DNA from: Candidatus Methanoperedens sp.
GTDB taxonomy: Archaea > Halobacteriota > Methanosarcinia > Methanosarcinales > Methanoperedenaceae
Assembly (NCBI GenBank): GCA_027460535.1
Contig: JAPZAR010000009.1
Span: forward strand, 30,001 to 62,000
DNA: 32,000 nt
Direction of reading: 5' to 3'
Shown here piece by piece: positions 14,401-28,957 of this stretch. The notes under the pieces were generated by a model that was not told the DNA's origin, did not search any database, and worked only from the letters and a program-made list of their open reading frames with translations. The translations under genes were made by a program, and so were the position numbers. Numbering within the stretch: position 1 is the first letter of the stretch; each line of letters begins with the position of its first letter.

Positions 14401-14516
14401 TCCACATCAGCACTTGCTATTAAATAGCCTTTGAACCAAAGCAAAGGAGTTAATCCTAGCAGAATTATTAACATTAGTTCATTATTTTCGGCCCAAAATA
14501 CTTTAATCGATTTCAT
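11481..14516 (-). CDS. Giant polytopic membrane protein, GT-C-fold glycosyltransferase-like (AftD/DUF3367-like)
   Basis: 1011 aa: ~450 aa of TM helices, a ~520-aa soluble domain and a final TM (FYIGLVISGITFISVVGYCIW). The first loop ADVDFPFNPLQRFIQRLYVWNTGILGG resembles the acidic first-loop motif of AftD-type GT-C enzymes. The C-terminal FVLVFSESYDPQWKAYIED...ANGYANSWYI...VVLYFKPQ pattern is typical of that family and of YfhO. This is recollection, not a search. Confidence 0.6.
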   Translation of the reverse strand: MKSIKVFWAENNELMLIILLGLTPLLWFKGYLIASADVDFPFNPLQRFIQRLYVWNTGILGGTDRSSDISAEFFTSLQALFHNILGFDLITTEKLTFIFWFTLSGLSMYFLMSQLINHREIKERIMRITAVIFYMFNFYQVYAWEMAKIGELTGVVIIPSLLGLFIGGLEERISYKQAAMPICIFSIIASGTGFQPPMLGALFLMLILFFIFYLSKLIIRKDKENIFHSIRFSALFFLIFFLIAMFWIIPIGNFVLDSDLTSTSKAMEVYSSTNLLEYTSKYNGFLNIFRQFGQVFWFDSWGGELYNPYFQSYQTDAILIAFSFFIPILAFSAVLFSRNRYVIFFTFTTVIALFLGKGIHPPFGELYSWMFENIPGFWIYRAPWQKFGILIALGYSFLIGVACSKIYEYLQKHSGNYDIKFSLLKIKINFPILFIGLILLSNIIYTYPLVFGDMFPSSEGDVGFHQKFDLGYHINFPQYIFEASEWMNSNEEEFKIILLPDDRTNVYDWGFGGVGDISNQLFNNKGMLFRSYGEGYIQPRPIDNMHRLSINAIYNNLTPNTAKILGLLNVRYLLQRNDFRYDFYGDVDSPEFIESRLSFQKGIHLEKTFGKWDFYRNDYFVPHIYATTGPIYINGSIESLIPLVSDNDFSPQSVFFFSEILKEQNNFVLNISKYRTCNSSEQRIVIPVYNGIDKPIDWTMMADKYAARSYIGKKGIINVKSKVDPDMFVISSIKDSPYIFPSWWTPPMWFSINSTHIYIRNGSEPLQINGIYADGKPASDVNGIFWETGWMGMTTKEVTYPAIIPANQKVIIQINHLVNKTVTLLVAQSNKELNFCSFDNPDKYSNISDVFHTNQNNKFDITFQEINPTKYKVHVNTSKPFVLVFSESYDPQWKAYIEDKNSEPNDIIKSYENTKVKEAKHDMKFTPSDVSYLFKKSLPDENHFMANGYANSWYIDSQELSMGENFTVVLYFKPQSYFYIGLVISGITFISVVGYCIWNWRRNKAKKNDLL

Positions 14517-14527
14517 GGTTTTTTCCC

Positions 14528-15322
14528 TTAGAGTATGCAGCCGTTCTTTATCTTTTTAGCAATAATTACAATACGACTTCCTCTCATTAGCTTCGGCAAA
14601 CATAACACTAAAATTTTATATAAACTATTTTTGATTTCGTACAGAATCAATCTGCTAATTGATAGTGATTTAACATTATTCATCTGGAAATGATTTGTAT
14701 CAATAAATAGTATGTTATAATTTAATTTTTTAAGAATATACATATAAGTATTTACGGAATGAGCCACCTCATTTGGGGTAGCTAGTCTATGATTGATAAT
14801 ATAATCTTTTCCAAATATAGATGTCAAATATACTCTCATCAAACCAAACAGTTTATTTACTGGGTTAGATCCATTAGGTTCTATAATTATGAGAAACCCA
14901 TCATGTTTGATCCATTCACTCAAATTATAAAAAACCTTGTCGATTAATGGAAAATGATGCAGAATAAAAGGACATAATATTAATTCAAATTGATCTTTGT
15001 CAAATATATTTTCATCTTCCAAATCATTAGTTATTGCATGATAATTCTGGGTTGGAGGTTCATTAGCTAGTTTAACCATTTCTGGAGTGATATCTACTCC
15101 TGTTATCTTCAAATTTGGATTTAGATTTAGAAGAAACTTTCCAAATATTCCAATACCACAACCAGCTTCTAAAACTTTATATTTTTTATATTTAATTTTG
15201 GGAATATATTTAATGAGAACTTTCCTGAGATAATCAAAGTATTCTTTATCATATTCTGTTGGTTCTTCGAGAACGCCCCTAAAAAATTCTCGTTCATAAG
15301 ATTTATTTTGTAATGTCTTCAT
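14528..15322 (-). CDS. Class I SAM-dependent methyltransferase
   Basis: Motif I VLEAGCGIGIFG, followed by ITGVDITPEMV and LILCPFILHHFP (Methyltransf_11/25-like). Its stop lies 11 nt upstream of the GT-C gene start. Confidence 0.85.
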   Translation of the reverse strand: MKTLQNKSYEREFFRGVLEEPTEYDKEYFDYLRKVLIKYIPKIKYKKYKVLEAGCGIGIFGKFLLNLNPNLKITGVDITPEMVKLANEPPTQNYHAITNDLEDENIFDKDQFELILCPFILHHFPLIDKVFYNLSEWIKHDGFLIIIEPNGSNPVNKLFGLMRVYLTSIFGKDYIINHRLATPNEVAHSVNTYMYILKKLNYNILFIDTNHFQMNNVKSLSISRLILYEIKNSLYKILVLCLPKLMRGSRIVIIAKKIKNGCIL

Positions 15323-15456: not shown

Positions 15457-16650
15457 TTAGTGTCCTTTCATATTCATTGGATTTTCATTTTTGATCAATT
15501 TGTTGAATATCTCAAACTCTTTGTTTGATATTAGATCCCAATCATATTGTTGAATACCATTAAACCCTTTTAATCCAAGTTCAGCGCATAAATCCGTATC
15601 ATAAAGAAGATCATTCACAATTACTGCAAATTTAGATATATCGAATAATTCTACCGTTTTTAGTCCATCTTTGAAAATACGATATGTCGGTAAATCATAT
15701 GCAACAACCGGTAATTTGCAGGCCATCGCTTCACAAACTGCAATTCCCCATCCTTCTTCATGGCTGGGAGTAATAAATATCCTACTCTGCTTCATTATTT
15801 CAATACATTCCTTATGGCTTTTAGCTCCGGCGAGTTCTATAGATGTCATTAATCCCTCCCCCTTGATAGACGCTTTTAGCTCATTTTCATATTCTTTAAG
15901 TCCTCCACCTACGACAATTAATTTGGCATTTATATTACTCTTGACAACTCCTTTCCATATGGGAACTATATCGTGCAAACCCTTACTTGGACGTAGTCCA
16001 CCTACAAAACAAGCATCATAAATTATATCATTTTTTGTATTATTTATATCATCTATAAATTTTAGATTCACCCCATTAGAGATCATTTCAACAGAATATT
16101 TTGAATGAAAAAGTTTAGCTATTTTTTCCCCCATTGCAGAATCGTATACAAAGACTTTATCGGCATTATTTTTAATCAACCTATAACTTAGTTTTTGCAT
16201 TATTGAAGATAAAAAGCTAACAAAAAAATCAATGGGTTTATTTTGATTAATCCCTACTAAATGATGTGTCATAGCAATCCATTTTGTGCGGTTAATTTTA
16301 TGGTATATTAATGCTGGGATAATATCACATATATAATCTGAATCAGTATAACATATATCACATTTTGGTAAACGCGGAACAATGAAAAATGAAAATATTG
16401 TAGAGATGAAATATGCCTCGATTCGATCATAGATTCCAGATTCTATCTTCTTGAAAATAGACGCTGGAAGAATATGGTATATCACTTCTAATCCCATAGA
16501 TCGGCAAGCTTTGAATCCACCAATGGTAGTAAGAAAATGAATTTCACATCCCATTCTTTGCAACCTTTTTGCGATTTCTATAGTTCTAATTAAACTTCCC
16601 CCTACCCCACCCGATAAACCATTTCCGTTAGCGATATATAATATTTTCAT
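15457..16650 (-). CDS. Glycosyltransferase, GT-B fold, family 4-like
   Basis: The track starts at GTG 16659; ATG 16650 (MKILYIANGNG) is more typical. The EX7E motif EGWGIAVCE is followed by AMACKLPVVAYD. N-terminal GGVGGSLIR. Confidence 0.85.
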   Translation of the reverse strand: MKILYIANGNGLSGGVGGSLIRTIEIAKRLQRMGCEIHFLTTIGGFKACRSMGLEVIYHILPASIFKKIESGIYDRIEAYFISTIFSFFIVPRLPKCDICYTDSDYICDIIPALIYHKINRTKWIAMTHHLVGINQNKPIDFFVSFLSSIMQKLSYRLIKNNADKVFVYDSAMGEKIAKLFHSKYSVEMISNGVNLKFIDDINNTKNDIIYDACFVGGLRPSKGLHDIVPIWKGVVKSNINAKLIVVGGGLKEYENELKASIKGEGLMTSIELAGAKSHKECIEIMKQSRIFITPSHEEGWGIAVCEAMACKLPVVAYDLPTYRIFKDGLKTVELFDISKFAVIVNDLLYDTDLCAELGLKGFNGIQQYDWDLISNKEFEIFNKLIKNENPMNMKGH

Positions 16651-16727
16651 TTTAACCACTTGAATATAGTTTTACAAAACGCCTTCTAATAATCATTACT
16701 TCTCTATTCTATGGAAATTGCAAATAT

Positions 16728-18158
16728 TTATTTAGAATATGTAGTTTCCCTTAATTTTTCAAATACCATACATAATTGTAGCCCATTTTTGGCATCTTTT
16801 TGTTTCAAATCGATTTTTTCTAAATTCCACCATAAAGAAGAGTCTGGTTTGTTAATCTCCGGAATAAATCTCGATAAAACAATTTGAATTATTTTAACTA
16901 GATGCCCACTATAGAATATATTTTTGATATCAAAACCATGATTTTTAAATTTTATGCCTAATTGTTCCTCACTATAGTGTCTTAAATGTCCTATTTTCTT
17001 GTCATGAAGATAATATGGCAGCCAAAAAATAGGAAGAATTCTTTTATATGCATTAGGGACTATGATTACAATTTTTGCTTGAATCTTTGATACCCTGGCC
17101 ATATCCTCTATGGCTTTACAATCATTCGGCAGATGCTCTAAAACTGCTATTGAGCTAATTTTAGAAAACACTTTTTTTTTAAATGGCAGATATTCTGCTG
17201 AACCCACAATAAAATGACATACTTCATCGTTATTCAATATTTGTTCTGCAAAATTTTTTGCTTTTTTAACACCTTGCAGTGAGATATCGATACCCACTGA
17301 TACACAACCTCTTTGCGCAGCTTCTATAACAGTATAGCCAGAACCACCAATCCCGATATCAAGATAGTAACTTGAGTTTTCTCCATTCATATCTAGCATG
17401 GCGCATATCCTCCGAAGGTAACTGAGTCTCCAATTCTCCAGATGATATTTTTTATAATTTTTGTATTCGTTATCAAAATATTTTTTTTGAAAATTATATT
17501 GATTATTGATATTAATATTAGCAGAAGAATTAAATCTGTTCTTTATAAAAATCATATTGTAAGATAGATAATTCTTTAAGACAGGTATAATTTCCAAAAT
17601 ATTCTCAAATTTTTGTATTATGTTTAATAAGAATATATTTCTCAATGGATACACATGTGCTTCAAAAGATATAATTTTATAATTTTCAAAATAACCGCCG
17701 ACCAAATTTCTAAATTTATCCTTTGAAAAATGCTTATGACCTCTAAGTAAAGTTAAGTGAATATAATTCAGTACGTGATATCTATTAGGTTCTATTAAAA
17801 CAATAACCCCAGTTTTCTTTGTAACGCGACTCATTTCCTTCAGTGCATCATTGTAATGCAAAACATGATGTAAGGCATCTTTCTCAATAACAACATCATA
17901 TATATTATTGCGAAATGGGAGATTGGATGCATCGGCTATCAAAAAATCTAAATTACAATTTTTTATCTTATTCCAATCATCAAACTTTTTAATGTCAATA
18001 CAGATTAGTTTTGATTTTTCTGATAATATCTGATCGAGATTTCCTTTACCACATCCAATATCTAATATCAAAAAGTTGTCTTTCAGTTCAATATTCAAAT
18101 TATATACTATCTTATTATAATAACATTCTTCCGAATATTTGAACATTTTTTTCCGCAT
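16728..18158 (-). CDS. Fused double class I SAM-methyltransferase (two MTase domains in one polypeptide)
   Basis: Domain 1: ILDIGCGKGNL ... ADASNLPF ... KDALHHV. Domain 2: YLDIGIGGSGYTVIEAAQRG ... GIDIS ... GSAEYLPF ... AVLEHLP. Its ATG directly abuts the TAA of the upstream rSAM gene (18159/18158). Confidence 0.8.
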   Translation of the reverse strand: MRKKMFKYSEECYYNKIVYNLNIELKDNFLILDIGCGKGNLDQILSEKSKLICIDIKKFDDWNKIKNCNLDFLIADASNLPFRNNIYDVVIEKDALHHVLHYNDALKEMSRVTKKTGVIVLIEPNRYHVLNYIHLTLLRGHKHFSKDKFRNLVGGYFENYKIISFEAHVYPLRNIFLLNIIQKFENILEIIPVLKNYLSYNMIFIKNRFNSSANININNQYNFQKKYFDNEYKNYKKYHLENWRLSYLRRICAMLDMNGENSSYYLDIGIGGSGYTVIEAAQRGCVSVGIDISLQGVKKAKNFAEQILNNDEVCHFIVGSAEYLPFKKKVFSKISSIAVLEHLPNDCKAIEDMARVSKIQAKIVIIVPNAYKRILPIFWLPYYLHDKKIGHLRHYSEEQLGIKFKNHGFDIKNIFYSGHLVKIIQIVLSRFIPEINKPDSSLWWNLEKIDLKQKDAKNGLQLCMVFEKLRETTYSK

Positions 18159-19565
18159 TTATATTCTAAGCAATGCTCTTAACTTTACCATGGAATTTTT
18201 GGCGCCTTGCGACTTCAAAAGGTGAAGAGTATTCAATATATTTTTTGAGCTAGTATATACTTTCAAATATGCCCTCTTTTGCAGAGCTACCAACTTTTTT
18301 TGATCTACACCCGCCAATTCCAGCGTTTTACCAGTTTGTTTGCTGTAATCGGACCAATTTTCAGATAATAATCGCAAACCTCCTTCACCCGTCCTCGCCA
18401 TGTCAGCAATTCTTGTTCCTGGGAAGGGGACCAGTATTGCAAAATTTGGATTGAATGCATCGAGTTGTGAGGCAAAATTAATAGTCTCCTTAATAGTCTT
18501 TTCAGTTTCATAAGGTAATCCGATGATAAAACATGCTCCTGCTTTGATACCGGCTTCTTTAGTCTTTTTAACAGTTTCCTGAATTAATCTTAGGTTCGTC
18601 TTTTTTCCAATCTTATTTAATATTTCCTCGTTCCCACTTTCAACCCCATATCCTATCACTGTACAACCTGCCTCTTTCATCTTCTTCAATAAGTCAACGT
18701 CATTCATCAAGTCAACTCTTCCACCTGTTTCCCATGTGATCCTCCTATGAAGTCCTCTTTTTATCAGTTCATCACATGTTTCTACTGCAATTCTCTTATT
18801 GATGCCAAAACTTCCCTCTACAAAATGTACCTTTGTTGCCCCAAAAAAATTTAAATTGCTTTCTATTTCATCAACTATTCTTTTGGCTGTTTTAAATCGG
18901 ACACTTCCCCCAAAAGTTCTATAACAAAAAATACAGTCAAAAGGGCATCCCCTTGCACCTTCTACGGGTAACTCCAAGCCTTCAATATGCTCTCCTGTTG
19001 GACTAAATTTTCTATATTTTTCAAGATTAAAAAGATTCCATGCTGGATATGGTAATTCATTTATATCTTTTATTAGTTCCCTTTTTTCGGTTCTGATGAT
19101 TTTATTATAGTTTTTAAATATTATACCTTTGACACAATCGAATTTTTTATTTGATTCAATTGCTTCAACAAGTTCCAAGCATGTCTTTTCTCCTTCTCCA
19201 ATAATACCAAAATCAAAAAAATTAAACTCTTTCATGGTTCTCTCGGGAATTGCGGAGATATGCGGTCCACCGATTATGCAATAAGTATTAGGAAGAACTC
19301 TTTTGATTTCACGGCACATAATATCTGCGTCAATTATCTCCTCTGTATAAGCATTAATCCCAATCACATCGGGATCTAATCCTTTTAGTGTTTCGCAGAG
19401 TTCAACCAGCGAATAGTTTTCGATAACTGGATCAATTATTTTGACATTATAATTCTCTTGCAAAACCGCTGCGATACTTGCCAAACCCACTCTCGGAAAT
19501 GTAGAACTACTTTGAATCTTATCGGATATTGTGTCTCTCAGAGGATTCATAAAAATAATATTCAT
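18159..19565 (-). CDS. B12-binding-domain radical SAM enzyme (COG1032-type)
   Basis: Canonical cluster motif GCPFDCIFC (CX3CX2C). The N-terminal Rossmann-like B12-binding segment reads DVIGINAYT ... IIGGPHISA. FIIGLPYET motif present. The track starts at ATG 19586, but ATG 19565 has GGAGG (19575-19571) at 5-nt spacing and lies 1 nt after the epimerase stop, so it is preferred. Confidence 0.85.
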   Translation of the reverse strand: MNIIFMNPLRDTISDKIQSSSTFPRVGLASIAAVLQENYNVKIIDPVIENYSLVELCETLKGLDPDVIGINAYTEEIIDADIMCREIKRVLPNTYCIIGGPHISAIPERTMKEFNFFDFGIIGEGEKTCLELVEAIESNKKFDCVKGIIFKNYNKIIRTEKRELIKDINELPYPAWNLFNLEKYRKFSPTGEHIEGLELPVEGARGCPFDCIFCYRTFGGSVRFKTAKRIVDEIESNLNFFGATKVHFVEGSFGINKRIAVETCDELIKRGLHRRITWETGGRVDLMNDVDLLKKMKEAGCTVIGYGVESGNEEILNKIGKKTNLRLIQETVKKTKEAGIKAGACFIIGLPYETEKTIKETINFASQLDAFNPNFAILVPFPGTRIADMARTGEGGLRLLSENWSDYSKQTGKTLELAGVDQKKLVALQKRAYLKVYTSSKNILNTLHLLKSQGAKNSMVKLRALLRI

Positions 19566-19566
19566 T

Positions 19567-20598
19567 TTAGCCTCCTTTCTTGACATCTTCTACCCATCCC
19601 AAAAGCCGCTTAATTCCCTCCCTATGCCCCACCTCTGGCGCCCATTTCAGCACTTCTCTAGCCTTCGAAATATCCGAAACGTAAACCTTCTGATCACTGG
19701 GGCGCCAGTCCGCAAAATTTATTTTCGAGCGATGGCCGGTCAATTCCTCTAGAAGATCCAGAAGCTCCAGTAACGATATAGTATTCTCTTGTCCACCACC
19801 AATATTCAAAACTGCGCTGCTGTTTAGATTCAAGAAGGCATCATATGCTTTTACTAGATCTTCCACGTAAAGCACATCCCTCACCTGCTTTCCATCTCCA
19901 TAAATCGTGATAGGTTTCCGAAATATTGTTGAAATTGCGAACCACGCAACCCAGCCTTGATCTTCGACGCCAAACTGCCTTGTGCCATAAATACAGCTCA
20001 TTCTGAAGACGCCTGAATTAAGCCCATAAAGATGCCCATAATCTTGACAGTAAATATCACCAGTTAACTTTGAGCAACCATATGGTGTATGTTCACACCG
20101 ATCTATCGCAAAAGACTCTGAAATCCCATTCTTAAATTTATCCTCAAATACATACCGTTTTTCTTTTTCCATTACTTTAATCGCATTTACATTGTCGCCA
20201 TATACCTTGTTCGTAGAACAATATACAACTGCCTCAACATCAGAAGTCCTTGCAGCCTCCATTACATTAAATGTGCCTAGAGCATTTACCTCAAAATCCG
20301 TTTTCGGATCAACTACCGATGTAGTAACTGCAGTCTGCGCAGCAGTATGTATGATCGCATCCGCACTCTTTGCAGCTTCTTTTAGTTCTTCTAAGTCTCT
20401 AATGTCTCCTTTGATTAATTTCACATTTTTAATATTCTTTAAGTAATTCCAGTTATATGCGGTATCGATAGAATCCTTTCTAAGAAGTTCTCCCCTAGAA
20501 AGGTTATCATAGCACACAACCTCATTTCCTTTTCTTGCAAAATATTCTGCAGCATGGCTGCCAACAAAACCTGCTCCACCTGTTATTAGTATTTTCAT
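19567..20598 (-). CDS. NAD-dependent sugar-nucleotide epimerase/dehydratase (extended SDR; CDP-paratose 2-epimerase-like subfamily)
   Basis: GGAGFVGSH Rossmann motif and catalytic YGCSK (YxxxK). Blocks STNKVYGD, DQGWVAWF, GDGKQVRDVLYVEDL, NIGGGQENTISLLEL and RPSDQKVYVSDI match my recollection of Salmonella RfbE. The subfamily call is less certain than the SDR call. Confidence 0.85.
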   Translation of the reverse strand: MKILITGGAGFVGSHAAEYFARKGNEVVCYDNLSRGELLRKDSIDTAYNWNYLKNIKNVKLIKGDIRDLEELKEAAKSADAIIHTAAQTAVTTSVVDPKTDFEVNALGTFNVMEAARTSDVEAVVYCSTNKVYGDNVNAIKVMEKEKRYVFEDKFKNGISESFAIDRCEHTPYGCSKLTGDIYCQDYGHLYGLNSGVFRMSCIYGTRQFGVEDQGWVAWFAISTIFRKPITIYGDGKQVRDVLYVEDLVKAYDAFLNLNSSAVLNIGGGQENTISLLELLDLLEELTGHRSKINFADWRPSDQKVYVSDISKAREVLKWAPEVGHREGIKRLLGWVEDVKKGG

Positions 20599-20652: not shown

Positions 20653-21798
20653 TTAAACGTCATTTAAATTTCGCATGAAAATTTCGTTATAATCAAATTG
20701 TTTTATGTATTTGGTTGCATTTATAGAATATTCTTTTAGAATGTCTTCATTTTCTATCAATTCTATTATTGCGCTTTTTATACTTTCCACATTATTTCTA
20801 ATTATTTTCCCACAATGGCATCGCTCAATTTCATGGGCATTATAAGGTATGTCAGTTAATAGAACAGGCAATCCCATCGCAAAATATGTCTTTAACTTCG
20901 TGGGATCGGCATAGTATGTAAAGGAGGCTTTTCCATTATCATACATAGCAACAGCGATATGTGATTTTCCTAATATTTTATTTAATTCTTTGGAATCGTA
21001 TATCGGTCCCCTGAATTCAACATATTTATCAATCTCCAAATGATATGCCAATTTTTTTAATTCCGTCTCATATTCGCCATTTCCAATTATAATAAAATTA
21101 AAGTCTCTAATTTTGTTGGTTATTTCAGGTATAGCCTTTAAAACTAGTTGAACTCCTTGTTTTTCCAGTAAATGCCCGACAAAAATCAATGTTTTTCTTC
21201 CATACTTTTTATTTATTTGTGGCAGATCTTCTAGCCAAACTCCTATCGGAACAACTTTCTGTTTATTATATTTTTCAGTTGGCATATTGTTGTATTTTCC
21301 CCTACCTTCAGCCATTCTTGGGGATAGATTCCATGTCTGATCACAATATCTTACACATATTTTGTCTATAGAATGATATATTTTATTCAAAAATTTATTA
21401 TTAAATCTGATAGGTGCATAGTCTATGGTGTAAAAAACAACTTTTTCACATTTACCAGCCCATTTAAGTGACAACGCACTCAAAGCATTAAAGCCTCCAC
21501 ATCCTACAATTAGATCGAATTTGTTTTTATTGAAAAAAATTCCAAAAAAAGAATAGAAGAAATCTTTAATGTATATGATAGTGTCTGGAAATAATTTGTA
21601 ATCTAAGCATTCGATAATATTCTCTTTGTTCTTATTAAATTCAGTGAAAGTTGTCTTTCTATCCGGCAAAGAAGAAAAACTATGTTGTACCAGTAACACG
21701 TACCGAGTATTGTTTTTCTTCAAAAATCTGTAAAGATCTTGACCAGCGCCGGTGAAGAGATGATGGGTTATAATAGCATACTTTTTATCAAATAACAT
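20653..21798 (-). CDS. Glycosyltransferase, GT-B fold (GT4-like, divergent)
   Basis: C-terminal domain pattern FVGHLLEKQGVQLVLKAIPEI ... IIIGNGEYETELKKLA ... VEFRGPIY ... TYFAMGLPVLLTD. The first Glu of the usual EX7E is not obvious. GAGGT SD 6 nt upstream; only 3 nt separate it from the upstream GT2 stop. Confidence 0.7.
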   Translation of the reverse strand: MLFDKKYAIITHHLFTGAGQDLYRFLKKNNTRYVLLVQHSFSSLPDRKTTFTEFNKNKENIIECLDYKLFPDTIIYIKDFFYSFFGIFFNKNKFDLIVGCGGFNALSALSLKWAGKCEKVVFYTIDYAPIRFNNKFLNKIYHSIDKICVRYCDQTWNLSPRMAEGRGKYNNMPTEKYNKQKVVPIGVWLEDLPQINKKYGRKTLIFVGHLLEKQGVQLVLKAIPEITNKIRDFNFIIIGNGEYETELKKLAYHLEIDKYVEFRGPIYDSKELNKILGKSHIAVAMYDNGKASFTYYADPTKLKTYFAMGLPVLLTDIPYNAHEIERCHCGKIIRNNVESIKSAIIELIENEDILKEYSINATKYIKQFDYNEIFMRNLNDV

Positions 21799-21801
21799 TC
21801 T

Positions 21802-22815
21802 TTACCTCTGTACCCATCCACTCCTATTCTCTTCTTCTACATGTATAGTATTCTTTATCAGGCCCCATGCGTACACGCCCATGGTTATCCAGCACGCCAG
21901 AATATGAAACCACCACGCTCTGTCCTGCTTCTGCCAGTAACCTCTCGAAACTTGAGAAACCAGCGGAAGAATAGTTATCGTATAAATAATGAATTTCAAC
22001 AGTTTCAGTTTGCCAAGACTTCCCCATGGATACTTCCTAAGCTTCAGCTTTTTATAATATGCGTAGTCCTTAATCCTTCGCCTTTGCTTCTTAATGAAAG
22101 TAAAAACATCCCCTGAAAAAAGATGCACAATCCCCACCTTGACTTTCGCAAACTTATTCTTTTTCTGCGTGATCAGTTCATAAACAATATCGATATCAAA
22201 CAGGTAATCACCCCTGGAACAATCCATTAGCGCCTCCCGCCTCACAAGGAACCCGTTCGCGCCTATGGTTGGCAGCTTCTTATCATCAAGTTCGATCTTA
22301 ATATAATTCCCCTTATCTTCCTGGATCACTGGCATCTCAGTCCATTTATTGGTTACCATGCACATCCTGTCATAATTTCCCAGGAATAAGCACAGCGGGT
22401 CGTTCATCCCGAGCATGGCGCAGTATCGCGTAATATACCCATCCTCCTTTCGATACGTGTAATAAAGCGGCTCAGTCCCTGCGATCTCCCTGTCCTGGAA
22501 CGGTTCAGTCATACGGGAAAGCCAGTCCCTTGAAGGAAGGATATTGTCCGAATCTATGAGAGCGATGATCTCATTTTTGGTATGTTTCACACCCGCGGCT
22601 TTGCCAGCTTCACCTGTTTTAAGAGGATTTGTATAGATCTTATCAGTGTATTTTTGAGCTATTTCAAGTGTGCTGTCAGTAGAGCCGCCGTCTGCAATGA
22701 TGATCTCAGTTTCACCTGCATATACTTGAATCATAATGCTGTCAAGGCATAGAGAAATGGTCCTTGCTGAGTTATATGTCGGAATAACGATGCTTATAGA
22801 GGGTGATTTTTGCAT
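21802..22815 (-). CDS. Glycosyltransferase family 2 with C-terminal TM helices
   Basis: The track ORF starts at TTG 22929. ATG 22815 gives the typical GT2 N-terminus MQKSPSISIVIPTYNSA. ADGGSTDST and the DxD motif DSDNIL are present. C-terminal TMs: FIIYTITILPLVSQV, WWFHILACWITMGVYAWGLI. Confidence 0.8.
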   Translation of the reverse strand: MQKSPSISIVIPTYNSARTISLCLDSIMIQVYAGETEIIIADGGSTDSTLEIAQKYTDKIYTNPLKTGEAGKAAGVKHTKNEIIALIDSDNILPSRDWLSRMTEPFQDREIAGTEPLYYTYRKEDGYITRYCAMLGMNDPLCLFLGNYDRMCMVTNKWTEMPVIQEDKGNYIKIELDDKKLPTIGANGFLVRREALMDCSRGDYLFDIDIVYELITQKKNKFAKVKVGIVHLFSGDVFTFIKKQRRRIKDYAYYKKLKLRKYPWGSLGKLKLLKFIIYTITILPLVSQVSRGYWQKQDRAWWFHILACWITMGVYAWGLIKNTIHVEEENRSGWVQR

Positions 22816-22988
22816 ATCTTTATTTTTCTCTTTTATTACATTCTTAATAGATAATAATGGTGCATGGGTTTCTAGCTGAAGAATAACGGTCCGCATAAAA
22901 CACAATTTCTGTTCCATATTGTGTAGCAAATATTATAAGCTCCGCTACCTCTGCACGGCCTTTTATCATAGCACTAGCTCAATACAAC

Positions 22989-23348
22989 CTAGCTGAGTAA
23001 CGGTTTGATCGTGTTTTCCTGAAGATTGCAATATCTCTTAAGCGACGCCAGGAACATTTTTTCCTGTGCAAATCCTGTTGACCAGTAGGGGTCCTCAAAA
23101 CCCTCTTTGCTGCTTAATTCATTGATTATGAGCCTTACCTGGGCATCCGAGATGCGAAAACTCCTGCGAATTTTTGAGAGTATGTTTATATAATGCCCGA
23201 TTTTCATCGGCATGTCGTCTGATATGTTTTTGACTGCTCCGCAATGTATGCAGTATGGATGCGATTTAAGGCCGTATACCTCCTCCCTTGAAATGTGAGG
23301 CAGCCAGACTTTCTCTTTGCTTCCACAGCTTTTATGTTCGCATTTCAT
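22989..23348 (-). CDS. Small Zn-ribbon protein of unknown function
   Basis: 119 aa. Four Cys arranged C3-x4-C8 ... C33-x2-C36 (KCEHKSCG ... YCIHCG), then a ~70-aa predicted helical C-terminal part. AGAGGA SD about 8 nt upstream; 27 nt downstream of the rSAM stop. Confidence 0.6.
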   Translation of the reverse strand: MKCEHKSCGSKEKVWLPHISREEVYGLKSHPYCIHCGAVKNISDDMPMKIGHYINILSKIRRSFRISDAQVRLIINELSSKEGFEDPYWSTGFAQEKMFLASLKRYCNLQENTIKPLLS

Positions 23349-23375
23349 TTTTGAATCCTCTTTTATGGTACCAGA

Positions 23376-24842
23376 TTAAGAATCACACTTTTCCTTATTC
23401 GAGAAATCAGTCAGATGTCCTGTGACTGCACTCACGCCCCTTTTTATAAATTTCAGGTCATCTATATTCCTGATGGACAGCAATCTTCGCAGGATGTAAC
23501 CAGGTGTGATAAATACCTTGTATAGTTCCTGTGTTAACTCTTTAATCTCCTGTTCGGTTATCGGACACTTCATAACTGCCTCACGCATATCGAATCTATC
23601 CCAGTCTTCGGTTACAAGCCAGCCATTTTCCTTGCATTCCCTGTAAAGAGGAGTTCCTGGATAGGGGATAACGATGGTTGCCTGAAGCGTATCGGCCCAT
23701 CCTTTTTTGAAAATCTCCTGGGCAAGTTTAACAGTCTGCAGAGCATCTGTTTTCGTCTCCCATGGATACCCGAGCATCACTGTTAAATGCGGGTCAAGCC
23801 CTGCCTTTTTAGCCATCATGCATGCATTTGGAATATCTTCCACTTTTGTACCTTTATTAATTCTGTCAAGCGTACCCTGGTTCGCAGACTCAACACCGTA
23901 GAGTATGAACCTGAATCCAGCATTTGCCATCAGGTCATATTCTTCCTGCATGAGGGCATTCACGCGCATGTTACAGTGGATATTTATTTTTTTATTATAT
24001 CCTCTCTCTATCATGCCAGTGCAGAAATCATGAAGCCAATTACCCACTGGAAAAGTACCTGTATCATCCATTATCTCCTTCACTTTATATTTCTCAATAA
24101 GCATACCTATTTCATCAAGCAGTTTTTCCGGAGTTCTTGCCCTGAAGGATGGATAAGTAGTAGTCCATGAGCAGAAAGTGCATTTTGCATGCCAGCAGTC
24201 TCTTCCGACCATGGTATAGGTGCCTGGTGTCCTTTTATAATTGCCATTTTTTTCGCTGTAGAGCTTCCATTTTGTCAGATCACGGTCAATGAAGGGCAGT
24301 TCATTCAGATCATGGTCAAGCTTGAATAATCCTGAATTCTTTATGGTTCCATCTTTCCTGTACCATATCCCTGGTTCTAACTTCACACCTTTTGCTAGAT
24401 GATCTGCAAGATTTAGCAGGAGGAAATCATAATCCCCCCCTGTGAGTATGAAATCGGCCTCACAGTTCTCCATAGATTCTTGCGGGAGCGCAGTCGCATG
24501 ATCTCCTGCGAGAACAATCCTTGTATCAGGACTCTTGCGCTTTATATCATCGATAATATTCCAATGTCTTTTGACCACTGGAGTTTTTGTCTCTATGGCG
24601 ATTACATCCGGTTCTTGCATTAGAATATCATTGCGCCACTTCTCATAAGTCTTATTTTCCGCGATCCCGTCGTCCCAGATGACCTGATAGCCGCTTCCTT
24701 TCAATAGAGTAGCAGCATAAGCAGGAACCATGGGGTAGATATAAGTAGGATTATTAAACCATTGGAACTGCCTGTTTTGGGCCAGCAATGGGGTACCCTT
24801 TGGGCTTTCAATCGGAGGATATGATATTGAAATTTTCATCAT
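23376..24842 (-). CDS. B12-binding-domain radical SAM enzyme with non-canonical CX4CX2C motif
   Basis: N-terminal Rossmann-like segment (PDVIAIETKT ... IVLAGDHATA). Cluster motif GRDCWHAKCTFC, which is C-x4-C-x2-C. VMLGYPWET motif present. The start overlaps the upstream GT2 stop (TAATG at 24842). Confidence 0.85.
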   Translation of the reverse strand: MMKISISYPPIESPKGTPLLAQNRQFQWFNNPTYIYPMVPAYAATLLKGSGYQVIWDDGIAENKTYEKWRNDILMQEPDVIAIETKTPVVKRHWNIIDDIKRKSPDTRIVLAGDHATALPQESMENCEADFILTGGDYDFLLLNLADHLAKGVKLEPGIWYRKDGTIKNSGLFKLDHDLNELPFIDRDLTKWKLYSEKNGNYKRTPGTYTMVGRDCWHAKCTFCSWTTTYPSFRARTPEKLLDEIGMLIEKYKVKEIMDDTGTFPVGNWLHDFCTGMIERGYNKKINIHCNMRVNALMQEEYDLMANAGFRFILYGVESANQGTLDRINKGTKVEDIPNACMMAKKAGLDPHLTVMLGYPWETKTDALQTVKLAQEIFKKGWADTLQATIVIPYPGTPLYRECKENGWLVTEDWDRFDMREAVMKCPITEQEIKELTQELYKVFITPGYILRRLLSIRNIDDLKFIKRGVSAVTGHLTDFSNKEKCDS

Positions 24843-25801
24843 TATCTCTCCAGTTCCCCAACTGTCAGGCCGCGAATAAAATATACACCATATGCAATGT
24901 GTGTTGCAATTGTTCCTGTAAATACCAGAGGTAAATATCGCAGATCTTTTCCATAAGCAGTTGCCATTAAAGAAACTGCAAACGTTGCAAACAGGTATAA
25001 AAACAGTATAGAAATATAGGCAAGAAAAATGGAATTATTCATTAACGGGAAAGCAATGCCAAATATTAAGAAAAGGACAAACATTGAAGGGATGAAATAG
25101 TTCACACGGAGGGACGTTTCAGGGAATTTTTTCGCAAAAAAGCCTCGATGGAGGCCGAACCTGGATACCTGCGCCAGATGCTTCGCAAATAATGGTCTTC
25201 GATGATGGAAGACGATTACCTCAGGGGATTCGATCATCTTTTTCCCGAGCTTCTTTATTCCAAGACATATCAACGTATCCTCCCCAGGCCAGTATTTCTC
25301 ATCCCATCCGGCAATCTCTTCGAGAACTGATCTCCTGGCAATGAAATTACATGAATGAATATCGTCGGATTCGCGGGATTTCCCGGTATTGTACCTGTCA
25401 GCAAGGCCACCTACCATGAAAGAAGAAAGAACATATCCCCCTGCCTTCTGTAGAATAGTATCCCTCGGTGGCGTCACTCCCGGGCCTCCCACCGCTGCGA
25501 TATCGGGGCAAGCGAAATATTTAACTGCATTAATGAGCCAGTCCTTTCTCGGATACGCATCGGAATCGATAAAAGCCAGAAATTCGCCAGTTGAGTTTTT
25601 GAGTCCGATATTTCTCTTTCGGCCAGGGGAAACTCCACCCGTTGAAATTATTTTTACATCGTCAATTGAATTCGAACCGTTGTCTGGTAAGACGATTATT
25701 TCAAAGTTTTCATAATCGAGCTCCATACATTCGTGGATACACTCTAAGGTGAGGGCATCTACATCGTTACAAGGGATTATTATGGAAATTTCAATATTCA
25801 T
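24842..25801 (-). CDS. Glycosyltransferase family 2 with three C-terminal TM helices
   Basis: ISIIIPCND, DxD motif DSDAYP, and conserved GGPG / GEDT blocks. C-terminal TMs: YFIPSMFVLFLIFGIAFPLM, IFLAYISILFLYLFATFAVSLMA, LPLVFTGTIATHIAYGVYFI. GGAGA SD 6 nt upstream. Confidence 0.85.
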   Translation of the reverse strand: MNIEISIIIPCNDVDALTLECIHECMELDYENFEIIVLPDNGSNSIDDVKIISTGGVSPGRKRNIGLKNSTGEFLAFIDSDAYPRKDWLINAVKYFACPDIAAVGGPGVTPPRDTILQKAGGYVLSSFMVGGLADRYNTGKSRESDDIHSCNFIARRSVLEEIAGWDEKYWPGEDTLICLGIKKLGKKMIESPEVIVFHHRRPLFAKHLAQVSRFGLHRGFFAKKFPETSLRVNYFIPSMFVLFLIFGIAFPLMNNSIFLAYISILFLYLFATFAVSLMATAYGKDLRYLPLVFTGTIATHIAYGVYFIRGLTVGELER

Positions 25802-25927
25802 TCAATTCTCCATTCTGACGAAGCACTCCAAATTTACCCACTGTTCAGCATTCTCATGGGTGAATATCTCTGCTCCGCCCGCTGCAGGATTCTTGATGTC
25901 ACGCCAGTTGTAAAAAAGTATTCTCAT
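25802..25927 (-). pseudogene. Remnant of a GT4 glycosyltransferase gene (first ~31 codons retained, then out-of-context tail and stop)
   Basis: Below the ORF-track size cutoff. Manual translation gives MRILFYNWRDIKNPAAGGAEIFTHENAEQWVNLECFVRMEN*. The first ~31 residues match the characteristic N-terminus of many archaeal/bacterial GT-B (GT4) enzymes (M.ILF.NWRDI.NP.AGGAE..THE.A..WV). The normal ~350-aa remainder is missing. It fills the gap between two GT2 genes exactly: 2 nt after one stop, and its TGA abuts the next ATG. Confidence 0.6.
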
Positions 25928-25929
25928 AT

Positions 25930-26868
25930 TCATTTCTCGAATTTTCTTGCAAGGGATTCGTAAGGTAAGGTTAAAATAACTATTACAAAACTCAAAGCGA
26001 ATAGGGCAATCAAACTTCTTGATTCAATTCCTGGTAATAAGAAGGGATCAATAAACTGTTTGTAAAGGTATATCCCGGATATTGAAACCATGAGCATGAT
26101 AGTTGAGTCTCGAATAATCCTTGAATAGTACTGCAAGAAACCGAATCGGCCTGCTACTGCAACTGTATCGAGAAAGATGTTGGTGATAACCTTAATATTT
26201 ATCCTTCCCCACCCCTTTCTTGTGAATTTCAAAATTATGGGCGCTTCCACGATCTTATAACCGAAACGCCTGGCATACGCCAATAACTCCACATCAAAGG
26301 CGTACCTCTTCACGCGCATCAGCGGAAAGACCTTTTGCAGGACTTCCCTCCTCATTAATTTGAAGCCAGCCTGAGTATCCCGGATTTCCAATTGCAGAAG
26401 CAATCGGAGTATGATATTGTACATCTTACTTAAGAATTTTCTAATAAGTGGATAGTATTCTATGGTGGAGAGGGGATGTCTCTTACTTCCCACAACGATA
26501 TCTGCATGGTATTTTTTCATGTACTCTAATAGAATGCTTATCTGCTTTGGATCAAGTTCCATGTCTGCATCAAGAAAAGTGACGAGGTCTCTTGTTGCAA
26601 ATTTCAATCCGTATCTTATGGCATTTCCTTTGCCCATGTTGTGCTTAACTTGCACGACATTGACATTGTCAAATCTTTTTGAAGTGGCTTCCTCATAAGT
26701 ATTGTCAGTGGATCCATCATCTACAACTATTATTTCATGATCCACTCCGAGCTCTGTGAAGAGATCTTTCACATGCATTATTGTTTTAAGAATGTGTCCT
26801 TCTTCGTTGTAAGCCGGAATAATTACCGACAGCTTATCATTTTTCATATTTGACTTTCCACTTTTCAT
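25930..26868 (-). CDS. Glycosyltransferase family 2, polyprenyl(dolichyl)-phosphate hexose synthase-like (DPM1/GtrB/AglJ-type architecture)
   Basis: LSVIIPAYNEE, VVDDGSTDNT, GKGNAIRYG and the DxD motif FLDADMELDP, followed by two C-terminal TMs (IMLMVSISGIYLY, LIALFALSFVIVILTL). The sugar specificity cannot be read from sequence. Confidence 0.8.
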   Translation of the reverse strand: MKSGKSNMKNDKLSVIIPAYNEEGHILKTIMHVKDLFTELGVDHEIIVVDDGSTDNTYEEATSKRFDNVNVVQVKHNMGKGNAIRYGLKFATRDLVTFLDADMELDPKQISILLEYMKKYHADIVVGSKRHPLSTIEYYPLIRKFLSKMYNIILRLLLQLEIRDTQAGFKLMRREVLQKVFPLMRVKRYAFDVELLAYARRFGYKIVEAPIILKFTRKGWGRINIKVITNIFLDTVAVAGRFGFLQYYSRIIRDSTIMLMVSISGIYLYKQFIDPFLLPGIESRSLIALFALSFVIVILTLPYESLARKFEK

Positions 26869-27169
26869 GAACTATACCGTTGCCGATATAAACTGGAATA
26901 ATCATTCATTAACCTGCCGTCTATTGATTTGCGAACAACAAGATAACGATAATATGTAATAATTCCAATTGTATTCTCTCTTTTTCCCGTTTCTGACCAC
27001 CGATCTCTCATGCCAACGCTATTTACAAATAGTAAGATATTTATAGTTTATGCATCATTGCAGTATTGAAGGATTAACCAGTGGTGGATATCCTATTGAG
27101 AATGAGATAAATCACCAAGTGGCGAAGAGAATCTCTGCCTATTATAATAAGAATAAGGAGGAAATACTA

Positions 27170-28957
27170 ATGGTGGATGGAAAAAAAAGAAAAGGATCTT
27201 TGATAGCAAGTACAGTTATCACAATGATCATTGTAACGATGTTGATTTTTTCGGGACCGATCGCGCAGGCGTTACTGGTCACGTTGAATGCCGATAAGAC
27301 CTCGGTACAGATCGGAGAGGCGGCGGAGAACAAGATCACGTTCACAACATGGGTGAATTTATCGAGACCAGATAATACAGTCCCGATACAGCGCGTTTTC
27401 CTGAATTTATCTGGCAATTCCCCAAGATCTTTTTCATTCGATCTGAATGGAAATGACATCCGTGGTACTGCTTTCCCAAGCGAAATAACCATAGCTTCTC
27501 CAGGAGGGGACCCCTGGGGGGGAGGTAATTTTGGAACAGGGTATGGATATGATTTTAATACCGGGGTGGGATATAATTTCGGCTATGGATATGGATACGG
27601 TGACGGGACAAATCCGCTGAATAGATCATTCATTATTACCCTTAATACATCAATGATGTTTGACGGAAGTTATACATCAAAGACCAATGTATATGCTGCG
27701 GGCAGCAGCTTGGCGCAAGGATTTACATCGACACCATTCAGTTTCACCCTCACACCGAGGATGATAAATACGACCGTTGGGTCATTCCCGGCAAATACAA
27801 CACAGGACTCAGGAATTATCCCTTCCCCGATCGGGAATATCCAGTACATAGTGACAAGCAATAGTACGACGATCCCTGTGATGATCAACGTGACCGTGTC
27901 GGTTCAAGCCCCATCGGGGTCAACAGACATCACTTCGTTCACTTCCGGTGCTATTCCTAACATTTACTTCAATATCTCGGTGAGCAACCCTGCCTGGTTC
28001 GCGAACATTTCCAATATCCAGTTCAGGGGATATTATAATGCGTCAAATATCCCATCAACTGTGGCGGAGAGCACGCTTCGGCCATACAGGTTCGCAACAA
28101 ATTGGCAGAGGCTGGATTGCGGTGCGGGCGAAATATGCGCTCCAACAATCGGGCTCACTGACGGTGCGATCCTCTATGCAGCCGGTGTGAATACAACAGG
28201 TGATTACGTCTGGGCGAACCTCAGCAGATTGTCAACCTTCGGTATCGCAGGTACAGTATCAGTATCAGCACCATCAGGCGGCAGCAGTGGCGGAACCGGA
28301 GGCGGGGGCGGTGTAGTTTCAGGCGAGCCTTTTGCCAACATAGTAAAGTCAGAAACACATGACATGGATCTGGTTTCCAACGCTCCGGTTAAATACACAT
28401 TCACAACCCCCGAGATCGGTATATATCAGGTAGTTGTCACGAATAAGGAGAGTGAAAACGGTATTTCCCTGAGAGCAGAAATTCTCAAAGGCACATCGAA
28501 ACTTGTGGCAGCCAACCCGCCAGGAACCGTATATAAGAATGTTAACCTGTGGATCGGTACACAGCGTGTAAATAGTGTTCTCATCAGGTTCAAGGTCGAC
28601 AACACATGGCTTACCAATAACAATGTGGCAGCCGGTGATGTCAAGCTGCTCAAGTGGGATGGAAGCCAGTGGACACAGCTTGATACTGCACAGACGACCG
28701 CGGATAGCGCGAGTACCTCCTACGAGGCAAAGTCCAGCACCTTGTCGATATTCGCGATAAGCAGTACAAAGGGAGTCGCAGTGCCAGGCGGAACTGCAGC
28801 AGGTGCAACGCCAACAGCAGCAACACCAGGTGCGACAACGCCAGCAGCTTCTCCTACCGCGACTGCCACGAAGGCACCAGGATTTGAAATGGTAACCAGC
28901 CTGGCCGCATTAACAGTGCTGATTACCGTCTTCCTGAGAGATAGAAAGAGAAGATGA
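27170..28957 (+). CDS. Secreted surface glycoprotein with Gly/Tyr-rich segment, PGF-pre-PGF domain and PGF-CTERM signal (close paralog of 1324-3579 in its C-terminal third)
   Basis: The track ORF starts at 27050. In-frame ATG 27170 has AAGGAGG 8 nt upstream and gives MVDGKKRKGSLIASTVITMIIVTMLIF (basic + TM signal-anchor). I count 13 N-X-S/T sequons. Linker SGGSSGGTGGGGG, then a pre-PGF domain (GEPFANIVKSETHD...LSIFAISS). An A/T/P-rich linker precedes PGFEMVTSLAALTVLITVFLRDRKRR. Confidence 0.9.
   Translation: MVDGKKRKGSLIASTVITMIIVTMLIFSGPIAQALLVTLNADKTSVQIGEAAENKITFTTWVNLSRPDNTVPIQRVFLNLSGNSPRSFSFDLNGNDIRGTAFPSEITIASPGGDPWGGGNFGTGYGYDFNTGVGYNFGYGYGYGDGTNPLNRSFIITLNTSMMFDGSYTSKTNVYAAGSSLAQGFTSTPFSFTLTPRMINTTVGSFPANTTQDSGIIPSPIGNIQYIVTSNSTTIPVMINVTVSVQAPSGSTDITSFTSGAIPNIYFNISVSNPAWFANISNIQFRGYYNASNIPSTVAESTLRPYRFATNWQRLDCGAGEICAPTIGLTDGAILYAAGVNTTGDYVWANLSRLSTFGIAGTVSVSAPSGGSSGGTGGGGGVVSGEPFANIVKSETHDMDLVSNAPVKYTFTTPEIGIYQVVVTNKESENGISLRAEILKGTSKLVAANPPGTVYKNVNLWIGTQRVNSVLIRFKVDNTWLTNNNVAAGDVKLLKWDGSQWTQLDTAQTTADSASTSYEAKSSTLSIFAISSTKGVAVPGGTAAGATPTAATPGATTPAASPTATATKAPGFEMVTSLAALTVLITVFLRDRKRR

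Follow-up and report, generated by a model that had tools for sequence, protein, structure and literature searches.

We analysed a 32,000-nucleotide stretch of DNA (hereafter the window) from Candidatus Methanoperedens sp., in which a membrane-embedded glycosyltransferase of family 2 (GT2) is encoded directly ahead of a class-B radical S-adenosylmethionine (SAM) enzyme, that is, one with a B12-binding-type N-terminal domain. The two genes, termed here GT2A and rSAM, form a pair that recurs in both domains of life. They and their immediate neighbours are arranged as follows (positions are those of the window):

25930–26868, minus strand: GT2up, a small GT2, probably a polyprenyl-phosphate glycosyltransferase, whose C-terminus is a putative membrane anchor
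25802–25927, minus strand: a 41-codon open reading frame (ORF), MRILFYNWRDIKNPAAGGAEIF..., which abuts the GT2A start
24842–25801, minus strand: GT2A, 319 aa, a membrane-embedded synthase-type GT2
23376–24842, minus strand: rSAM, 488 aa, a class-B radical-SAM protein with the motif CWHAKCTFC
22989–23348, minus strand: p119, a four-Cys protein of 119 aa
21802–22815, minus strand: GT2B, 337 aa from the ATG at 22815; the listed ORF reaches a TTG at 22929

An earlier note on this DNA had described the genes from GT2A to GT2B as four co-directional and tightly coupled genes. All four ORFs are indeed encoded on the minus strand, and both junctions that it had pointed out are present in the sequence. 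GT2A ends with ...GAGAGATAA, and its TAA overlaps the ATG of rSAM by one nucleotide (TAATG, at 24842); a second ATG follows directly, the homologues of rSAM begin with MKI, and the true start may be at 24839. The stop codon of rSAM is separated from p119 by a spacer of 27 nt (23349–23375) containing a Shine-Dalgarno-type AGAGGA 8 nt upstream of the p119 ATG. The alignments of GT2B homologues begin only around residue 41–44 of the TTG-started ORF, so the real start of GT2B is the ATG at 22815, which leaves a gap of 173 nt between p119 and GT2B. The tight coupling therefore covers GT2A, rSAM and p119, and excludes GT2B. A scan of the window for sigma-70 promoters and terminators gave no enrichment, the sigma-70 model being unsuited to an archaeon.

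The conservation of this arrangement was followed in a scan with one genome per species, in which at least 584 species genomes were matched and the best 80 loci were retained. Together with three loci fetched separately, these make up 83 loci, whose rSAM proteins are 56–84% identical and which span more than 20 phyla of both domains. The best 80 loci comprise 22 archaeal ones (from Methanoperedens, ANME-2, Methanosarcinaceae, Methanocaldococcus indicus, Bathyarchaeia, Woesearchaeota, Micrarchaeota and others) and 58 bacterial ones, the latter from Dehalococcoidia, the candidate phyla radiation (CPR; Saccharibacteria, Parcubacteria, Berkelbacteria), Treponema and other spirochaetes, Lachnospiraceae, Clostridium, Succinivibrio, Elusimicrobia, Nitrospinae, Thermodesulfobacteriota, Planctomycetia and others. 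Among the 80, Methanocaldococcus indicus SL43 is the sole isolate. Orthologues were called by tblastn at a minimum of 150 bits for GT2A (36–65% identity) and 200 bits for GT2B. A GT2A orthologue is found upstream of rSAM in 70 of the 73 informative loci, namely those with at least 1.1 kb of sequence upstream of rSAM; it is always co-directional, and in 56 of them it is directly adjacent. This arrangement is far beyond chance. The coupling of a membrane GT2 with a B12-type radical-SAM enzyme, as read earlier from this single locus, is thus a general one. The pathway can no longer be regarded as peculiar to methanogen-type archaea, given that the pair also occurs in CPR bacteria, Dehalococcoidia, spirochaetes, Firmicutes, Bathyarchaeia, DPANN archaea and Methanocaldococcus.

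The genes around the pair are far more variable. A small GT2 resembling GT2up lies 1–5 kb upstream of rSAM in 50 of the 83 loci, and a GT2B orthologue is present in 26, usually just downstream of rSAM; in many other loci a different GT2 of ~285 aa takes the place of GT2B. Clustering of the neighbouring proteins revealed short-chain dehydrogenases/reductases (SDRs) in 43 loci, a Wzx-type flippase family in 41, DegT aminotransferases in 21 and UDP-glucose dehydrogenase (UGDH) in 13, and GT-C-like proteins are also recurrent. The usual gene order is small GT2, Wzx, GT2A, rSAM, and then GT2B or another GT2. Even distant relatives of rSAM (48% identity, with a CX3 spacer in the cysteine motif, and 45%, with CX7) adjoin a GT2 of the Glyco_trans_2_3 type, and the cluster of one of them holds PMT- and YfhO-type GT-C enzymes. 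Because GT2A stays constant beside rSAM while the other genes vary, the conserved unit is the GT2A–rSAM pair, set in lipid-carrier-based glycan clusters. The four-gene module of the earlier note did not hold when co-occurrence was checked, p119 changing its position and being limited to Methanoperedens and other Methanosarcinales, and GT2B occurring in about a third of the loci (26 of 83). In the bacterial loci L001, L007, L009, L021, L029, L040 and L049, UDP-glucose 6-dehydrogenase is encoded directly upstream of GT2A, and an SDR often lies immediately 3′ of rSAM.

The rSAM protein is matched by the Pfam profile Radical_SAM (PF04055) with 61.2 bits, above the cut-off of 29.5, and a precomputed B12-binding match is present in most of its homologues. 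Its AlphaFold2 (AF2) model, with a predicted local distance difference test (pLDDT) score of 73, has the two-domain fold of class B, with an N-terminal Rossmann-like B12-binding domain and a barrel, and no membrane segment is predicted. Foldseek searches with this model retrieved MgmA, TsrM, AprD4, OxsB, CysS and TokK over both domains at 13–18% identity; these matches of a predicted structure confirm the class-B architecture and nothing further. Sequence searches of the PDB, with the single sequence as well as with a profile, gave partial matches only, to MgmA (9ccb) and AprD4 (6fd2), and these are uninformative on function. The B12-binding-type N-domain recognised in the earlier note is therefore supported by the fold, though the corresponding Pfam profile stays below its threshold, and the enzyme probably uses cobalamin.

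The homologues of rSAM number more than 6000 at E ≤ 1e-10, with the top 120 all at least 63% identical, and carry only names such as 'radical SAM protein'; the identical protein is on record from Candidatus Methanoperedens sp., and in a library of representatives at 50% identity there are 33,904 matches at E ≤ 1e-3. A tblastn search of plasmid and phage collections with rSAM gave no match. In the NCBIfam scan of rSAM no model reached its cut-off. The best one was HpnJ (162.2 bits, E 1.9e-47, full-length alignment), followed by BchE (122 bits), and the HpnJ equivalog (TIGR03471) has a cut-off of 577.6 bits, which places rSAM outside that family. A second B12-rSAM encoded in the window scores 151 bits on the same model, so the similarity of rSAM to HpnJ is largely generic to class B. 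The HpnJ model matches eight of 79 full-length representatives with E ≤ 1e-90 (the best with 5.9e-141), all eight being at ~30% identity, and HpnJ-like proteins are thus neighbours in sequence space that belong to a different family.

The cysteine motif of rSAM is C216-x4-C221-x2-C224, i.e. CX4CX2C instead of CX3CX2C, and CWHAKCTFC has one residue more than the corresponding CPFDCIFC in the second rSAM. The pattern RDCWxxxCxFC is invariant among 13 close homologues, and C216, C221 and C224 are present in at least 90% of the 79 wider relatives, while the first spacer ranges from CX3 to CX7 in representatives at 36–56% identity. The CX4CX2C spacing has been documented before in OxsB (PMC9204698) and in GenD1 (PMC4340712). 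The spacing genuinely characterises the family, yet it has precedents and does not identify any chemistry; the triad that the earlier note had singled out as unusual is there, and what it loses is its uniqueness. C274 and C290 were considered as extra cysteines specific to the family and rejected, since they are conserved across wider class-B relatives too. Representatives of 890–972 aa, which might have been GT2–rSAM fusions, turned out to be rSAMs containing inteins. In six relatives (P0145, P0147, P0148, P0152, P0153 and P0177) an intein with a Hint splicing domain, mostly accompanied by a LAGLIDADG homing endonuclease, lies within the [4Fe-4S] cysteine motif, directly before the third Cys (the C224 equivalent) in five of the six and before the second (C221) in P0147. 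The catalytic motif has two independent sites of insertion. The rSAM gene of the window has no intein, and a literature search found no paper on inteins in the Cys motif of this family.

GT2A is matched by the Pfam families Glycos_transf_2, which also matches GT2B, and Glyco_trans_2_3. It carries D40, D79-x-D81, G-E174-D175-T and Q211-x-x-R-F, the full set of motifs (D, DxD, ED, QxxR(W/F)) of synthase-type inverting GT2s, and D40, D79, D81, E174, D175 and Q211 are invariant in 37 homologues, with the consensus QVSRF. With 4425 homologues at E ≤ 1e-10, GT2A is as widespread as rSAM. Some of these homologues show a weak match to Glyco_transf_21, and the match of GT2A itself to the NCBIfam model AglG is weak, too (34 bits, far below the equivalog cut-off). 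The AF2 model (pLDDT 85.8) consists of a GT-A domain followed by long C-terminal helices, three of which are predicted in the membrane, and its top Foldseek matches are the membrane mannosyltransferase PcManGT (6yv7), hyaluronan synthases and BcsA. The fold, the motifs and the PcManGT-type matches suggest that GT2A acts at the membrane on a membrane-bound acceptor, to which one or several residues might be added.

GT2A and GT2B share a block of the form DSD..P..DW (FIDSDAYPRKDW in GT2A, LIDSDNILPSRDW in GT2B), just as the earlier note had observed, at only 28% identity across 140 aa. Its statement that both end in multiple transmembrane helices applies to GT2A, with three predicted; GT2B has a single hydrophobic segment over a crude threshold. 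GT2B matches Glycos_transf_2 with 73 bits and has the motif D126-S-D128 and a hydrophobic C-terminus. GT2up matches the same family with 125 bits and has one strong hydrophobic segment at its C-terminus. Its best solved relative is the dolichol-phosphate mannose (Dol-P-Man) synthase of Pyrococcus (5mlz; 80 bits over residues 9–282), followed by GtrB (5ekp) and ArnC, and its NCBIfam equivalog matches are all far below the cut-offs (AglJ, 66 bits). GT2up is therefore described here as a probable primer of the lipid carrier, similar to Dol-P-Man synthase (DPMS), GtrB, ArnC and AglJ.

We propose, with moderate confidence, that GT2A and rSAM constitute a two-enzyme cassette that tailors a glycan, within a surface-glycan pathway linked to polyprenyl phosphate and dependent on Wzx. 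What we infer is its substrate, the sequence of steps and the chemistry, and we do so from the gene content and domains observed, from the conservation of the pair across domains and from its glycan-cluster context. By homology, the DPMS-like GT2up would load a first sugar onto dolichyl phosphate, and the membrane-embedded GT2A would attach the next sugar at the cytoplasmic face of the membrane. The soluble rSAM would then alter the sugar added by GT2A while it is still lipid-linked, as the conserved adjacency and the translational coupling of the two genes suggest, by means of a 5′-deoxyadenosyl radical derived from SAM at the [4Fe-4S] cluster and, probably, of cobalamin. The glycan might subsequently be extended by GT2B, or by another GT2 elsewhere, and the Wzx flippase and GT-C-like proteins would be responsible for its export and its attachment to proteins or polymers of the surface.

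The spread of the pair limits what its substrate can be. The pair is shared by Bacteria and Archaea at about 60% identity and is present in CPR and DPANN members too, which often lack the ability to make lipids of their own, so its substrate must be one that all these organisms have. A polyprenyl-phosphate-linked sugar fits this distribution, and archaeol, glycerol dialkyl glycerol tetraethers (GDGTs) and hopanoids do not. A pathway specific to archaeol or hopanoids is accordingly unlikely. Of the lipid-linked sugar remodelling suggested in the earlier note, the lipid-carrier glycan context stands, with its DPMS-like GT2, Wzx and GT-C proteins, and an archaeol or other domain-specific lipid acceptor becomes unlikely. 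The UGDH and SDR neighbours hint that the sugar handled by the pair may be a hexuronic acid or a derivative of one. As for the chemistry, we tentatively favour the guess that an unactivated sugar carbon is C-methylated with the help of cobalamin. Less likely, it seems, is an oxidation, epimerisation or dehydration to which an SDR step would be added, and a radical rearrangement, or a contraction of the ring of the HpnJ and OxsB kind, ranks slightly lower again.

Several observations weigh against the proposed cassette or against parts of it. The nearest characterised model, HpnJ, represents a presumed ring-contraction enzyme and no methylase. The B12-binding match of rSAM (PF02310) reaches 29.2 bits, slightly under the cut-off of 32.1, and AprD4 has the same fold as rSAM and does not use cobalamin. 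The synthase-type motifs of GT2A would also be compatible with an oligomeric or polymeric product in place of the addition of a single sugar. In the window, no Wzx gene stands between GT2up and GT2A as it does in many loci, the flippase being encoded ~15 kb away. Finally, the adjacency of the two genes is equally compatible with rSAM acting before GT2A.

In that last case, rSAM would precede GT2A in the pathway and turn a nucleotide sugar (for instance a UDP-hexuronate or UDP-hexose derivative) into an unusual donor, which GT2A would be dedicated to transferring. UGDH is encoded directly upstream of GT2A in about 8–12 loci and an SDR directly downstream of rSAM in about 12, a placement expected for nucleotide-sugar pathways; rSAM has no predicted membrane segment, and pairs of a transferase and a tailoring enzyme are common in glycan clusters. 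Against this, the presence of UGDH, SDR and aminotransferase genes differs between loci while the membrane GT2A is constant, and no UGDH gene adjoins the pair in the window. Moreover, the characterised class-B enzymes that modify sugars act, to our knowledge, on assembled or lipid-linked intermediates rather than on nucleotide sugars. We therefore regard this alternative as unlikely, though deserving of some weight.

Another alternative is a pair like HpnI/HpnJ or calditol synthase (Cds, Saci_1489), which would attach a sugar to a membrane lipid, the end product being archaeol-, GDGT- or dolichol-based, and ring-contract this sugar to a carbocyclic head group. This was the logic followed in the earlier note. 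The architecture is alike: HpnJ is the top curated model for rSAM over its full length, the eight remote representatives mentioned above match it strongly, some GT2A homologues have a weak Glyco_transf_21 match, and OxsB, a ring-contracting class-B enzyme, also has CX4CX2C. The model scores do not bear it out, since rSAM remains so far below the HpnJ cut-off and the second rSAM scores nearly the same. HpnI does not match GT2A and gives just 14.9 bits for GT2B, and no HpnK-like deacetylase was found among the scanned ORFs. Furthermore, the membrane lipids differ or are scavenged in the lineages that carry the pair (both domains, CPR and DPANN), and Wzx, GT-C proteins and a DPMS-like GT2 are genes of exported glycans, not of lipid head groups. 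A lipid head-group pathway is thus improbable.

GT2A could alternatively be a processive synthase of a β-linked oligo- or polysaccharide, with rSAM modifying the nascent chain in the manner of the partners of alginate, poly-N-acetylglucosamine (PNAG) and cellulose synthases. Its complete set of synthase motifs and the hyaluronan synthases and BcsA among its Foldseek matches would agree with this. Three C-terminal helices are too few for a translocation channel, though, and PcManGT, which heads the structural matches, is a minimal enzyme of the cellulose-synthase-like type with a link to the assembly of N-glycans; the Wzx flippase and the putative lipid-carrier-priming GT2 that accompany the module fit a stepwise assembly. 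We give little credence to a processive GT2A. That rSAM has nothing to do with the glycosyltransferases and merely resides within a glycan island, acting for example on a peptide or RNA, is very improbable: a weak similarity to radical-SAM enzymes of RiPPs (peptides made by the ribosome and modified after translation; ApyD, 102 bits) and the small Cys-rich p119 next to rSAM might be taken in its favour, but the pairing is kept in 70 of 73 loci across two domains, p119 is missing from almost all loci, and the neighbourhoods hold no recurrent genes for precursor peptides or RNA modification.

In the window, the four genes from GT2A to GT2B form the upstream end of a co-directional glycan cluster of ~21 kb. 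The other features of this cluster and its flanks, identified by Pfam and NCBIfam scans unless stated otherwise, are:

27050–28957, plus strand: a large ORF without Pfam match; by eye, it has a PGF-like hydrophobic C-terminal tail and many N-x-S/T motifs
20653–21798, minus strand: a GT4 glycosyltransferase
19567–20598, minus strand: an SDR epimerase/dehydratase
18159–19586, minus strand: the second B12-rSAM, with CX3CX2C, 25% identical to the first; BchE is its best model (187 bits, below the cut-off)
16728–18158, minus strand: a tandem methyltransferase of 476 aa with two class-I methyltransferase domains, directly after the second rSAM
15457–16659, minus strand: a GT4 glycosyltransferase
14528–15322, minus strand: a methyltransferase
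11481–14516, minus strand: a GT-C-like membrane protein, 1011 aa
9815–10837, minus strand: a 340-aa ORF without Pfam match
8128–9627, minus strand: a Wzx/MurJ-type flippase
6009–8036, minus strand: a GT-C-like protein, 675 aa
1324–3579, plus strand: a surface-type protein at the cluster flank, with a PGF-CTERM archaeal sorting signal (Pfam match)

The two flanking proteins (1324–3579 and 27050–28957) are candidate acceptors of the glycan. Together with the methyltransferases, the second rSAM raises the possibility that the glycan may carry several methylations; homologues of the second rSAM are found in about 15 of the 83 related loci. The GC content is 0.28–0.38 (mostly ~0.30) at 11–22 kb and 0.42–0.47 in most of the remaining window, with the drop starting after GT2B. 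This low-GC block has the appearance of a glycan island, gained by horizontal transfer or hypervariable, that adjoins the conserved cassette.

The 41-codon ORF fills the spacer between GT2up and GT2A and ends right at the GT2A start. Too short for a Pfam match, and giving none, it has 74% identity over 31 aa to the start of a truncated ORF of 79 aa at the same position in locus L004 (472–711), and its sequence resembles the beginning of a GT4 glycosyltransferase. Probably it is what an old rearrangement left of a gene, at the spot where other genomes carry Wzx.

The small protein p119 has the pattern C-x-H-x2-C ... H-x2-C-x2-C followed by a helical C-terminal half. C3, C8, C33, C36 and H5 are invariant in all 24 homologues found, and H30 nearly so. 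This pattern fits a putative zinc ribbon, and neither Pfam nor NCBIfam gave a match even at E ≤ 1. All 24 homologues come from Methanoperedens or other Methanosarcinales, and p119 was found by tblastn in none of the 83 loci. A profile built from the 24 sequences and run on the small ORFs that follow rSAM detected a Methanolobus p111 (E 2e-4, L003) and, weakly, a Methanosarcinaceae ORF (L006); the other small ORFs in this place were rejected as p119 homologues, as they belong to a different, YdjM-like membrane family. The position of p119 varies as well, being between rSAM and GT2B in the window and in L087, and between the small GT2 and GT2A in L084 and L085. In a Methanosarcinaceae genome (L086, 6001–7765), a 50%-identical homologue lies among toxin-antitoxin genes of the PIN/MqsA type, far from glycan genes. 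Given this restriction to one lineage and the shifting position, p119 is best seen as an accessory gene in a variable slot and not as a conserved partner of rSAM or member of the module; its consideration as a RiPP precursor or rSAM partner was abandoned on the same grounds. It may belong to a mobile pool of small genes rather than to glycan synthesis.

Other genes were seen in the same slot. In another Methanoperedens genome (L019, 12540–13096) it holds an SDR and, from reading the sequence, an apparent toxin-antitoxin pair of the BrnT/BrnA type. In 14 loci, Methanocaldococcus indicus and CPR bacteria among them, a YdjM-like membrane protein of ~140–150 aa is encoded between rSAM and GT2B (for example L003:10961–11395, L026:11477–11896 and L021:11570–12016). 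Its conserved motifs are H, DxDH, HxxE and HxxxD, and YdjM (PF04307) matches it weakly; it is absent from the window, and it could be a further component of the module, e.g. a membrane hydrolase.

That a glycan cluster should contain a B12-rSAM is no surprise by itself; of interest is the large, widespread and uncharacterised family linked to GT2A. The rSAM family goes unmentioned in recent reviews of B12-rSAM enzymes and of lipid-modifying radical-SAM enzymes, and literature searches combining B12-rSAM with glycosyltransferase or polyprenyl, polysaccharide C-methylation, and S-layer or archaea returned nothing on it. As no curated NCBIfam family matches at its cut-off either, the earlier assessment of the pathway as undescribed still applies within the models and papers searched. 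Class-B radical-SAM enzymes perform some of the hardest C–H functionalisations in biology, very few of them on carbohydrates. This family is also unusually well conserved, with at least 56% identity over more than 20 phyla of both domains, and its tie to one type of membrane glycosyltransferase offers a concrete two-gene target for heterologous expression. Solving the function of the pair would give a role to a protein named merely 'radical SAM protein' and define a new step in the biosynthesis of surface glycans (N-glycans, S-layer or envelope polysaccharides) of anaerobes. The carriers concerned include the methane-oxidising Methanoperedens, Bathyarchaeia, spirochaetes and Firmicutes of rumen and gut, and episymbiotic CPR bacteria and DPANN archaea with almost unknown envelopes. 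A bolder reading, which we consider possible yet doubtful, is that the pair installs a chemically new sugar (C-methylated, ring-rearranged or carbocyclic) on polyprenyl-phosphate-linked glycans and has spread horizontally through hundreds of anaerobic lineages of bacteria and archaea, CPR and DPANN among them. If true, a widespread glycan modification has so far escaped structural description.

Compared with known systems, the GT2A–rSAM pair shares with HpnI/HpnJ, which belong to the pathway from bacteriohopanetetrol glucosamine to the cyclitol ether, the combination of a membrane-acting GT2 and a class-B rSAM, with HpnJ as the top model for the latter. In contrast, the HpnI model (TIGR03472) does not match GT2A at E ≤ 0.01 and scores GT2B far below its cut-off of 310 bits, no HpnK or hopanoid genes were found among the scanned ORFs of the window, whose host is Candidatus Methanoperedens, and the present pair occurs in archaea and in hopanoid-free bacteria amid genes of exported glycans. 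OxsB of oxetanocin biosynthesis (5ul4) has the class-B fold and the CX4CX2C motif of rSAM, but it is only 17% identical, has extra domains (729 aa in all) and acts on a nucleotide, and it was not retrieved by the PDB sequence search with rSAM. GenK, GenD1 and MoeK5 are class-B enzymes that C-methylate sugars. They act, as proposed here for rSAM, on a sugar carbon of an assembled glycoside, GenD1 also has the CX4CX2C spacing, and UGDH or SDR genes flank the present pair in some loci; the likeness is one of class-B membership, and the three come from actinomycete antibiotic clusters. MoeK5 acts on a lipid-linked uronic-acid unit.

On the glycosyltransferase side, PcManGT of Pyrobaculum calidifontis (6yv7) is the best match of GT2A (E 6.6e-15, 20% identity) and combines, as GT2A does, a GT-A domain with few membrane helices, though the TM-score is just 0.52–0.58; we know of no rSAM partner of PcManGT. 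For the pathway as a whole, the closest parallel is offered by the dolichyl-phosphate-based N-glycan assembly of Haloferax, in which AglJ primes the carrier, AglG, AglI and AglE extend the glycan, AglP methylates it, and a flippase and AglB complete its transfer. Stepwise assembly on a lipid carrier followed by export is also the logic of Gtr/Arn-type systems. With the Agl pathway the proposed cassette would have in common a DPMS-like primer, further GT2s, one tailoring enzyme, flipping and a GT-C-type transfer, and the likeness is weak in score, with GT2up to AglJ and GT2A to AglG both below the equivalog cut-offs. The difference lies in the tailoring, which would be carried out by a radical-SAM enzyme here and by a class-I methyltransferase in Haloferax, and in the presence of the GT2A–rSAM cassette in bacteria as well.

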